Assembly: GCF_003334815.1 (NCBI RefSeq)
Contig: NZ_QOWO01000002.1
Source of the DNA: Escherichia coli
GTDB taxonomy: Bacteria > Pseudomonadota > Gammaproteobacteria > Enterobacterales > Enterobacteriaceae
Length of the DNA stretch: 64,000 nucleotides
Reading direction: 5' to 3' (one strand)
Below the pieces are notes generated by a model. It saw only the letters and a program-made list of their open reading frames with translations. It did no database searches and was not told the origin of the DNA. Positions 39,853-40,246 of the stretch are shown here, one piece after another (within the stretch, counting starts at the first letter, position 1; each line of letters starts with the position of its first letter). The translations under genes and the position numbers were made by a program.

Positions 39853-40041
39853 ATTACTCAACATCTCCATTTCCGCTGTCCATGTTGTCATGGTTCACAG
39901 TACCGCACATCGGCATTCGATGTGACGGAGCGAAACCCTTTGGGCGCTAAGTGTATTTTTTGTAAATCGACGATGATCACCTTTGATAACGTCGCGCTGC
40001 AAATACGCACTGACCATGCGCCGCTGGATTTCACAAAATAA
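39853..40041 (+). CDS. ymcF: Small zinc-ribbon ORF (ymcF-like); start uncertain, no canonical start codon between the cspG stop and the CPCC motif
   Basis: In-frame ...HFRCPCCHGSQYRTSAFDVTERNPLGAKCIFCKSTMITFDNVALQIRTDHAPLDFTK ending at TAA 40039-40041; coordinates assume an ATT start at 39853; in-frame TTG/GTG codons exist only inside cspG. Confidence 0.4.
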   Translation: MTQHLHFRCPCCHGSQYRTSAFDVTERNPLGAKCIFCKSTMITFDNVALQIRTDHAPLDFTK

Positions 40042-40246
40042 TATCAGGCTCCCTCGTGGAGCCTTTTTTATATCTGCCTTATTTTTCTTCAACGCTGTAT
40101 GTATAGTAAGCGATAACCTGTTGATTATTGAATCTTTCGGGGAGATGGCTTATAACATTTCTTACCTGACCAGGGTACCGGGAACCAACACCTTACTGGC
40201 GTGTTGCTGTCTTTTAAGACCAGAAGAGGTTAACAGTGAATATTGA
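40016..40246 (+). CDS. ymcE: Annotated small ORF YmcE (76 aa); reality uncertain because an intrinsic terminator lies inside it
   Basis: ORF MRRWISQNNIRLPRGAFFISALFFFNAVCIVSDNLLIIESFGEMAYN... overlapping the ymcF-like ORF 3' end and the gnsA start. Confidence 0.45.
   Translation: MRRWISQNNIRLPRGAFFISALFFFNAVCIVSDNLLIIESFGEMAYNISYLTRVPGTNTLLACCCLLRPEEVNSEY
40044..40070 (+). terminator. Intrinsic terminator downstream of cspG/ymcF
   Basis: AGGCTCC-CTCGT-GGAGCCT stem followed by TTTTTTAT. Confidence 0.85.

Follow-up and report, generated by a model that had tools for sequence, protein, structure and literature searches.

The cold-shock gene cspG of Escherichia coli is followed by a short reading frame that lacks a conventional start codon near its beginning and runs into the next annotated gene, ymcE. 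This raises the questions of whether the frame is translated, from which codon, and what ymcE then represents. We examined them in a 64 000-nt stretch of E. coli DNA (contig NZ_QOWO01000002.1 of assembly GCF_003334815.1; hereafter the window), at the cspH/cspG/ymcF/ymcE/gnsA locus of E. coli K-12. The original prediction, made from the sequence alone, held that a frame after the cspG stop codon (TAA at 39840–39842) stays open to 40041 and encodes a peptide with a CPCC...CIFC zinc-ribbon pattern. The sequence and the listing of open reading frames (ORFs) bear this out, and the frame is not new: it is the already annotated gene ymcF, whose existing annotation, name and Pfam family the prediction had missed. 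The two genes concerned are:

39630..39842, plus strand: cspG, cold shock protein of 70 aa, operon gene 1 in the arrangement proposed below (ORF; RefSeq WP_000066490.1 / b0990)
39853..40041, plus strand: ymcF (b4723), small protein of 62 aa with four cysteines in two knuckles, ATT start (RefSeq coding sequence; Pfam PF23641)

RefSeq/PGAP names the product 'cold shock small protein YmcF' (WP_071524879.1) and places its coding sequence at 39853..40041; as this begins at 39853, RefSeq takes the ATT at that position as the initiation codon. NC_000913.3 also annotates ymcF, as b4723, and window position 39853 corresponds to its position 1051684. Between the window gene and the PF23641, b4723 and RefSeq YmcF entries we found no difference, with identical coordinates, 62-aa product and ATT start. 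The frame lies +1 relative to cspG, runs uninterrupted from 39766 up to its TAA (40039–40041) and encodes ITQHLHFRCPCCHGSQYRTSAFDVTERNPLGAKCIFCKSTMITFDNVALQIRTDHAPLDFTK. Its translation contains ITQHLHFRCPCCHGSQYRTSAFDVTERNPLGAKCIFCKSTMITF, i.e. the CPCC and CIFC knuckles, and the cysteines of YmcF are laid out as C9-x2-C12 and C34-x2-C37. The match to Pfam PF23641 (YmcF-like) was full-length (E = 1.7e-49; residues 1–62 on model positions 1–62 of 62).

Homologues of YmcF numbered 137, in Enterobacteriaceae and some phages, and PF23641 was carried by all 120 homologues among the matches listed. In an alignment of 37 diverse YmcF members, P10, C12, G14, S15, Q16, R18, P29, G31–K33 and I35–K38 were invariant, while C9, C11, H13 and C34 were kept in at least 90% of the sequences. 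The CPCC...CxxC pattern of the YmcF-like family is thus retained, C12 and C37 without exception and C9, C11 and C34 at that frequency. Within E. coli, an 851-nt query over the locus was 100% identical to K-12 MG1655 and was matched in 5417 of 5426 complete genomes, at least 80% of the region being present in 5398 of the 5426; ymcF lay under the match in 64/64 full-length E. coli matches among the matches listed.

The ratio of nonsynonymous to synonymous substitution rates (dN/dS) of ymcF, measured against E. coli K-12, was 0.02–0.14 for sequences from other E. coli out to Klebsiella. In more distant genera the synonymous sites were saturated, yet the protein was still 60–80% identical. We also compared seven Escherichia sequences, each representing a lineage, and used four divergent E. 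coli strains for single-nucleotide polymorphisms (SNPs) within the species. Among the seven, variable columns of ymcF fell on codon positions 1, 2 and 3 in the proportion 3/2/20; in the four strains, 9/9 polymorphic sites were synonymous and the protein was identical. We conclude that ymcF is under strong purifying selection and, because of the Pfam match, the 137 homologues and the dN/dS of 0.02–0.14, that the frame is far beyond chance. The single NCBIfam match of YmcF, to the ECs_2282 CxxC family, fell below threshold (17 bits; cut-off 37), and the source of the RefSeq name is therefore probably a BLAST rule rather than a hidden Markov model. In PHROGs no family was matched for YmcF or YmcE.

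The original prediction had further stated that the frame holds ATT codons at 39850 and 39853, that only these or TTG or GTG codons inside cspG could start it and that the first ATG is far downstream. We confirmed this: the candidate TTG (39781) and GTG starts fall within cspG, and after the cspG stop there are only two canonical in-frame starts, GTG at 39922 (codon 24), which sits past the first cysteine knuckle, and ATG at 39973 (codon 41). We then read the codon aligned to ymcF residue 1 in 80 species-level enterobacterial loci. Where a csp gene lay directly upstream (40 loci, including Escherichia, Citrobacter, Salmonella, Kosakonia, Yokenella, Trabulsiella, Siccibacter, Intestinirhabdus and Pluralibacter gergoviae), this codon was ATT in 36, ATC in 3 (two Salmonella subspecies and Siccibacter colletis) and ATG in 1. 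Where csp was not directly upstream (40 loci, including Klebsiella, Raoultella, Enterobacter, Leclercia, Lelliottia, Silvania and Atlantibacter), ATG stood at the aligned position or at most three codons off in 36, usually preceded by an AGGAG motif, and ATT in 4. A non-canonical start was therefore present at 39/40 csp-adjacent loci compared with 4/40 non-adjacent loci.

In 17 loci the nearest upstream in-frame stop was 12–60 nt away, with no ATG, GTG or TTG between this stop and the conserved HFRCPCC, which makes a canonical start impossible in those loci. The position of the start is thus fixed by the orthologues (ATG in 36 loci, ATT or ATC in 43) and has no canonical alternative, as expected of a gene that starts at a non-AUG codon. 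Of the two ATT codons in the window, the one at 39850 is a change of the K-12 lineage (A; the codon is GTT in the loci of other Escherichia species and in the four E. coli strains compared), and on this comparison the conserved start is the ATT at 39853, not 39850. Together with the RefSeq start, the 80-locus comparison and the 17 loci without a canonical start support the earlier suggestion that the peptide uses non-canonical or coupled initiation.

The association with csp extends to the junction between the two genes, where one further element has to be named:

39840..39844, plus strand: TAAGG, the cspG stop inside a Shine–Dalgarno-like AAGG, 8 nt before the ATT (motif together with the csp stop in 40/40 csp-adjacent loci)

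All 40 of these loci had the csp stop embedded in an [AG]AGG motif (TAAGG or TGAGG). The gap from the csp stop to the ymcF start was 10 nt in 31 loci, as it is in the window from the cspG stop to 39853, and 9 nt in 7; a gap of 9–10 nt was held in phages and in at least eight named genera (Escherichia, Citrobacter, Salmonella, Kosakonia, Yokenella, Trabulsiella, Siccibacter and Pluralibacter). Short conserved spacing, with a Shine–Dalgarno element over the upstream stop, is the arrangement of a translationally coupled pair. Gene pairs coupled by termination–reinitiation, as described by the scanning model of Adhin and van Duin (1990), likewise have a short fixed gap, a stop codon in the downstream Shine–Dalgarno sequence and tolerance of a weak start. 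Unlike in such pairs, four ymcF orthologues use ATT without an upstream gene, and coupling of ymcF is argued here from comparison.

Two groups of genomes in which csp has been lost or damaged are informative. Decay of csp in Citrobacter sedlakii NBRC 105722 has altered its RNA-binding motifs (KWFN to KEFN, VFVHF to VFVPSS), and ymcF there starts with ATG (locus L019 2296–2689); a 19-nt deletion joins csp in frame with ymcF to give a 130-aa ORF. The other csp-adjacent Citrobacter loci start ymcF with ATT. What survives of csp in Klebsiella and Raoultella is a piece of its 3′ end (...PAVVNVVA...), ~60 nt upstream of a ymcF that starts with ATG (L032, L033, L038, L043, L044 and L051, position 2501). 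Several Klebsiella and Raoultella loci also contain a short ORF, MAKCPCGSECCSK..., whose last bases overlap the ymcF start as ATGA and which could be a new leader peptide or a product of chance.

The limits of the transcription unit are marked by two elements:

39474..39896, plus strand: match to the Rfam cspA thermoregulator model, over the cspG 5′ untranslated region and coding region (RF01766)
40046..40070, plus strand: predicted intrinsic terminator of cspG–ymcF, with a 7-bp GC-rich stem (5 GC pairs), a 5-nt loop and T6 (terminator scan)

The RF01766 match scored 159 bits (gathering score 78; E = 3e-43) and reaches 44 nt into ymcF; the model also matches the orthologous csp–ymcF loci of Citrobacter, Salmonella and phage Tritos. 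At the other end, the hairpin AGGCUCC-CUCGU-GGAGCCU (40046–40064), followed by a run of T6 (40065–40070), begins 4 nt past the ymcF stop and folds with −12 kcal/mol (z = −3.4 compared with shuffled sequences). As a GC-rich hairpin with a U-tract at the end of the unit, it has the make-up of a Rho-independent terminator. Most csp-coupled genera carry a hairpin and T-run 2–10 nt after the ymcF stop, with stems that differ by genus (AGGCUCC, AGGCCCCCA, AGCUCC, AAGGCCAG, AAAUCAGGCCAG and UAAAGCCUCGCA); across these genera, the terminator is conserved in structure and position, not in sequence. The terminator after ymcF and the RF01766 match over the cspG leader and coding sequence thus delimit a predicted transcription unit, cspG–ymcF, that ends at ~40070, and this fits a two-gene operon. 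Consistent with this, the mRNAs of ymcF and of its prophage paralogue ynfQ shift together with those of cspG and cspI in transcriptomes (PMC11728337; PMC11228462), and ynfQ is listed as 'cold shock induced' (PMC11228462).

The Rfam family STnc220 (RF02077), a Salmonella small RNA candidate, matched with 102 bits in Salmonella over the last ~40 nt of ymcF and the terminator (L012 2647–2726 and L023 2647–2725); in the window the corresponding match (39999–40079, plus strand) reached 34 bits and is below threshold. Because STnc220 amounts to the ymcF 3′ end plus the terminator, it suggests a stable 3′-end fragment of the csp–ymcF mRNA. The hairpin at 40046–40064 is near-palindromic, and its minus strand also scores as a terminator, with the tail GATATTATTT; this score is probably not significant, since the nearest minus-strand gene end (yccM, 40458) is ~400 nt away.

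We propose the following scheme for the expression of ymcF. A cspG–ymcF transcript would begin at the cold-inducible cspG promoter and leader and end at the hairpin and U-tract at 40046–40070, 4 nt past the ymcF stop. Translation of ymcF would begin at the AUU at 39853, with the UAAGG that includes the cspG stop acting as a Shine–Dalgarno-like element 8–10 nt before it. Since the cspG stop lies within this element, ribosomes ending cspG would be delivered to the weak AUU or would unmask it, by termination–reinitiation or another form of coupling. Translation of cspG would then be a precondition for YmcF synthesis, and the amount of YmcF would stay in a low, fixed proportion to that of CspG. 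We infer coupling as the mechanism of AUU use because ATT is linked to csp, the gap is fixed, the csp stop lies in the motif, and the start codon has switched in C. sedlakii and in Klebsiella and Raoultella. Taken as a whole, the reading that ymcF is a real annotated gene, that it forms an operon with cspG, that its AUU start is coupled and that ymcE is an artefact appears likely to us. More tentatively, the start codon may have co-evolved with csp coupling, AUU or AUC being kept beside csp and AUG taking its place when csp was lost or decayed (Klebsiella and Raoultella, Enterobacter and Leclercia, and C. sedlakii); we regard this extension as possible and do not rely on it.

If such co-evolution has taken place, the AUU would serve as a conserved means of tying YmcF synthesis strictly to Csp translation, and of keeping it sub-stoichiometric, during cold acclimation. 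The YmcF start could also be tuned by the rise of initiation factor 3 (IF3) in cold shock. The junction would then offer a clean natural case of termination–reinitiation that licenses a non-canonical start.

Several observations weigh against this scheme. ATT is kept without csp upstream in four loci, three Pseudescherichia and related genomes and C. freundii M-21 (L041, L063, L068 and L075), which have a −10-like GCTATACT ~80 nt upstream, an AAGGA motif and an apparent promoter of their own; coupling is therefore not needed everywhere for the use of ATT. The association of ATT or ATG with the presence of csp is clustered by phylogeny, and independent events are few, about 3–5. Folding of 39790–39900 for a structure that might mask the start gave nothing unusual (z = −1.3). 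A search of a literature library found no paper describing the discovery of ymcF and no profiling or reporter data on AUU initiation at this gene.

The strongest alternative is that AUU is used via ordinary Shine–Dalgarno-directed 30S initiation, the weak codon keeping YmcF low and sensitive to IF3 as in infC, and that adjacency to cspG reflects co-transcription only. The four loci that combine ATT and AAGGA without a csp gene upstream are in agreement with it, as is the presence of AAGG or GAGG at good spacing in every locus. Moreover, the AUU starts of infC (which encodes IF3) and pcnB are conserved across species, as that of ymcF is, and function without coupling. The infC start differs from that of ymcF in that its AUU serves IF3 autoregulation and does not lie 10 nt after the stop of another gene, and ymcF differs from both infC and pcnB in having ATC in Salmonella and Siccibacter colletis. 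Ordinary initiation does not readily account for the distribution of the codons, ATT or ATC in 39/40 csp-adjacent loci against ATG in 36/40 non-adjacent ones, for the switch to ATG in the sole Citrobacter species with a decayed csp, or for a 9–10-nt gap that is constant across at least eight named genera and phages. We therefore consider this alternative rather unlikely in comparison with coupled initiation, and it is the one that comes closest.

The proposed end of the cspG–ymcF transcript bears directly on the gene annotated next, and on the one that follows it:

40016..40246, plus strand: ymcE (b0991, formerly sfa), annotated ORF of 76 aa (RefSeq; NCBIfam NF007379)
40128..40156, plus strand: candidate sigma-70 promoter for gnsA, TTGAAT (40128–40133), 17-nt spacer, TATAAC (40151–40156), found by eye
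40236..40409, plus strand: gnsA, downstream gene with a GTG start (ORF; RefSeq b4517; PHROG 2301, E = 1e-33)

The original prediction had the 3′ end of the ymcF frame overlap ymcE (40016..40246) and a strong terminator lie within ymcE, from which it suggested that ymcE is misannotated or separately transcribed. The overlap with the ymcF ORF is 26 nt, and the terminator recovered by our scan lies wholly within ymcE and begins 30 nt after its start. The ATG of ymcE (40016) is AGG or ATA in 4 of the 7 Escherichia lineages, and in 4 of the 7 the frame is shifted or stops prematurely: E. whittamii and Escherichia sp. E1V33 have a 1-nt deletion, E. coli E69 has two deletions, of 2 nt and 1 nt, that enclose in-frame stops, and in E. 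coli SCPM-O-B-8794 a 6-nt deletion creates a stop. In the region that belongs to ymcE only, variable columns by codon position were 13/8/10 among the seven Escherichia sequences, with no third-position bias, and the SNPs of ymcE within E. coli were 4 nonsynonymous and 3 synonymous. The combination of an intact ORF and coding-type substitutions in relatives, by which a protein-coding gene is recognized, was thus not found. Outside Escherichia we detected no homologue of ymcE among the loci compared, except for the segment adjoining gnsA. The position-conserved terminator, the lost ATG, the frameshifts and truncations and the non-coding substitution pattern all favour the suggestion of misannotation or separate transcription, and judging from them ymcE is probably not a conserved protein gene.

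Segment 40113–40235 of ymcE differs from the rest in being near-invariant at all codon positions. The candidate gnsA promoter lies inside ymcE, ~80 nt before the gnsA GTG; both of its hexamers are invariant in the seven Escherichia sequences, and two spacer positions differ in E. coli E69 only. With a terminator ahead of it, gnsA needs its own promoter or read-through, and TTGAAT-17-TATAAC is a plausible candidate for the former. A consensus promoter scan did not report it, because its −10 hexamer ends in C. The annotated ymcE would then be an artefact composed of the ymcF 3′ end, the terminator, a variable spacer and, finally, the promoter and leader of gnsA. Suppression of fabA6, first assigned to sfa (ymcE), was reportedly credited to gnsA by Sugai and colleagues in 2001, which would also speak against a YmcE protein. 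Strain SS17 of E. coli O157:H7 has gnsA recorded as a pseudogene with a frameshift (locus L089 from 497); its cspG and ymcF are intact.

It is also conceivable, and in our view unlikely, that ymcE is a genuine, recently evolved E. coli protein, made from read-through or from its own promoter despite the internal terminator. In mainstream E. coli, including the four strains compared for SNPs, the ymcE ORF is uninterrupted, and the E. coli genomes sampled carry it as annotated; a curated NCBIfam equivalog also exists, NF007379, which ymcE matches with 187 bits against a cut-off of 163; this match is near trivial, because the model was built from E. coli sequences. A closer parallel comes from the Qin prophage, in which the small ORF ynfR spans the corresponding terminator and was detected as a cold-induced tagged protein (PMC6001520), so that translation across such a terminator is possible. 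These points count against the view of ymcE as an artefact. In the other direction stand the loss of the ATG in 4/7 and the frameshift or premature stop in 4/7 Escherichia lineages, the 13/8/10 variability, the lack of a homologue outside Escherichia among the loci compared and a terminator that begins 30 nt past the ymcE start.

Two explanations that would dispense with an AUU start altogether were rejected on comparative grounds, and we consider both very improbable. A canonical TTG or GTG within cspG could start the protein (e.g. TTG 39781, giving 86 aa), as the frame is open from 39766, the ORF listing program begins the ORF at that TTG and some database entries have such N-terminal extensions; however, many species have an in-frame stop 12–30 nt before the ATT and lack a canonical start between the two, the extension varies in both length and sequence, and the orthologues with ATG start exactly at the codon aligned to the ATT. 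Alternatively, a programmed +1 frameshift, or read-through of the stop codon, at the cspG end could yield a CspG–YmcF fusion. In agreement with this, ymcF is in frame +1 relative to cspG and, in E. coli, the final ~75 nt of cspG contain no stop in that frame; seven Kosakonia-type loci have a csp stop in frame with ymcF, and C. sedlakii has a fused ORF. Against it, the 10-nt and 9-nt gaps place ymcF in different csp frames in different lineages and so make a single recoding mechanism unlikely, several 10-nt-gap loci have an in-frame stop 21–24 nt before the start that leaves 2–3 codons for a shift, the existence of stand-alone orthologues with ATG identifies the 62-aa protein as the functional unit, and the csp of C. 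sedlakii is mutated in conserved Csp motifs.

Coupled initiation of a real ymcF thus remains our preferred reading of the locus. A real small gene with a non-AUG start, of the kind that ordinary gene finders miss, proved recoverable from raw sequence; the scientific gain is small, because ymcF is already in the reference annotation. The new points that the comparisons suggest are likewise small: evidence that ymcE (b0991), annotated as a protein throughout E. coli, is without coding constraint, and the association between an ATT or ATC start and csp adjacency, which makes coupling of a cold-shock small protein directly testable.

YmcF is rich in cysteine and probably metal-binding. Four-cysteine zinc-ribbon and rubredoxin-like mini-proteins (e.g. 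the MqsA N-terminal domain, ZifS and the Rpb9/A12 ribbons of RNA polymerase) resemble it in having two CxxC knuckles ~22 residues apart, and a 2026 review models YnfQ with rubredoxin topology (PMC13348028). YmcF differs from these mini-proteins in its extra conserved Cys11 and His13, and similarity to known structures was low. The AlphaFold2 model contained short beta-strands and was of low confidence (mean predicted local distance difference test score 60.7), and a Foldseek search of the PDB with this low-confidence model returned nothing significant, the best match being the MqsA N-terminal domain (E = 0.39; template modelling score 0.35). When PDB sequences were searched with a profile, the matches were weak and non-significant, of the Rieske 'CPCHGS' type (E = 0.1–0.9), the best having E = 0.1. 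With a poor model and no significant fold match, the assignment of YmcF to the zinc ribbons depends on the cysteine pattern, which tells against taking the fold as settled.

The invariant CPCCHGSQY (window 39877–39903, residues 9–17) resembles the Rieske iron–sulfur box II (CPCHGS). Cys11 and His13 provide more ligands than a Zn(Cys)4 site requires and, with five Cys and one His conserved, one may speculate from CPCCHGSQY that the metal site could be something other than a plain Zn(Cys)4. Our best guess is that YmcF is a zinc-knuckle protein which associates with nucleic acid or ribosomes and works together with Csp proteins at low temperature. The lasting linkage to csp on chromosomes and phages would suggest that it takes part in those RNA or ribosome processes of the cold in which Csp proteins act.

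The prophage counterpart of the locus is found in Qin of E. coli K-12 (NC_000913.3 1637600–1639400, minus strand) and in lambdoid phages, as a module cspI–ynfQ–terminator/ynfR–ynfN–gnsB located after the lysis genes. The ynfQ gene (b4724) is a paralogue of ymcF, with a product of 62 aa that is ~68–71% identical. It shares with ymcF the ATT start, a csp (cspI) stop inside the motif (TGAGG), the 10-nt gap, a terminator right after the stop and a downstream gene of the gnsA/gnsB type. It differs in its location on a prophage or phage and in having ynfR and ynfN before gnsB instead of ymcE. Names vary between sources, and 'ynfQ' in PMC6001520 is another protein, of 37 aa. Phages with a ynfQ-type module include HannyBb, mEp460, 2H10 and Tritos, in which the ymcF-like module lies at L083 1278–1760, and several phage records leave the ymcF-like gene unannotated.

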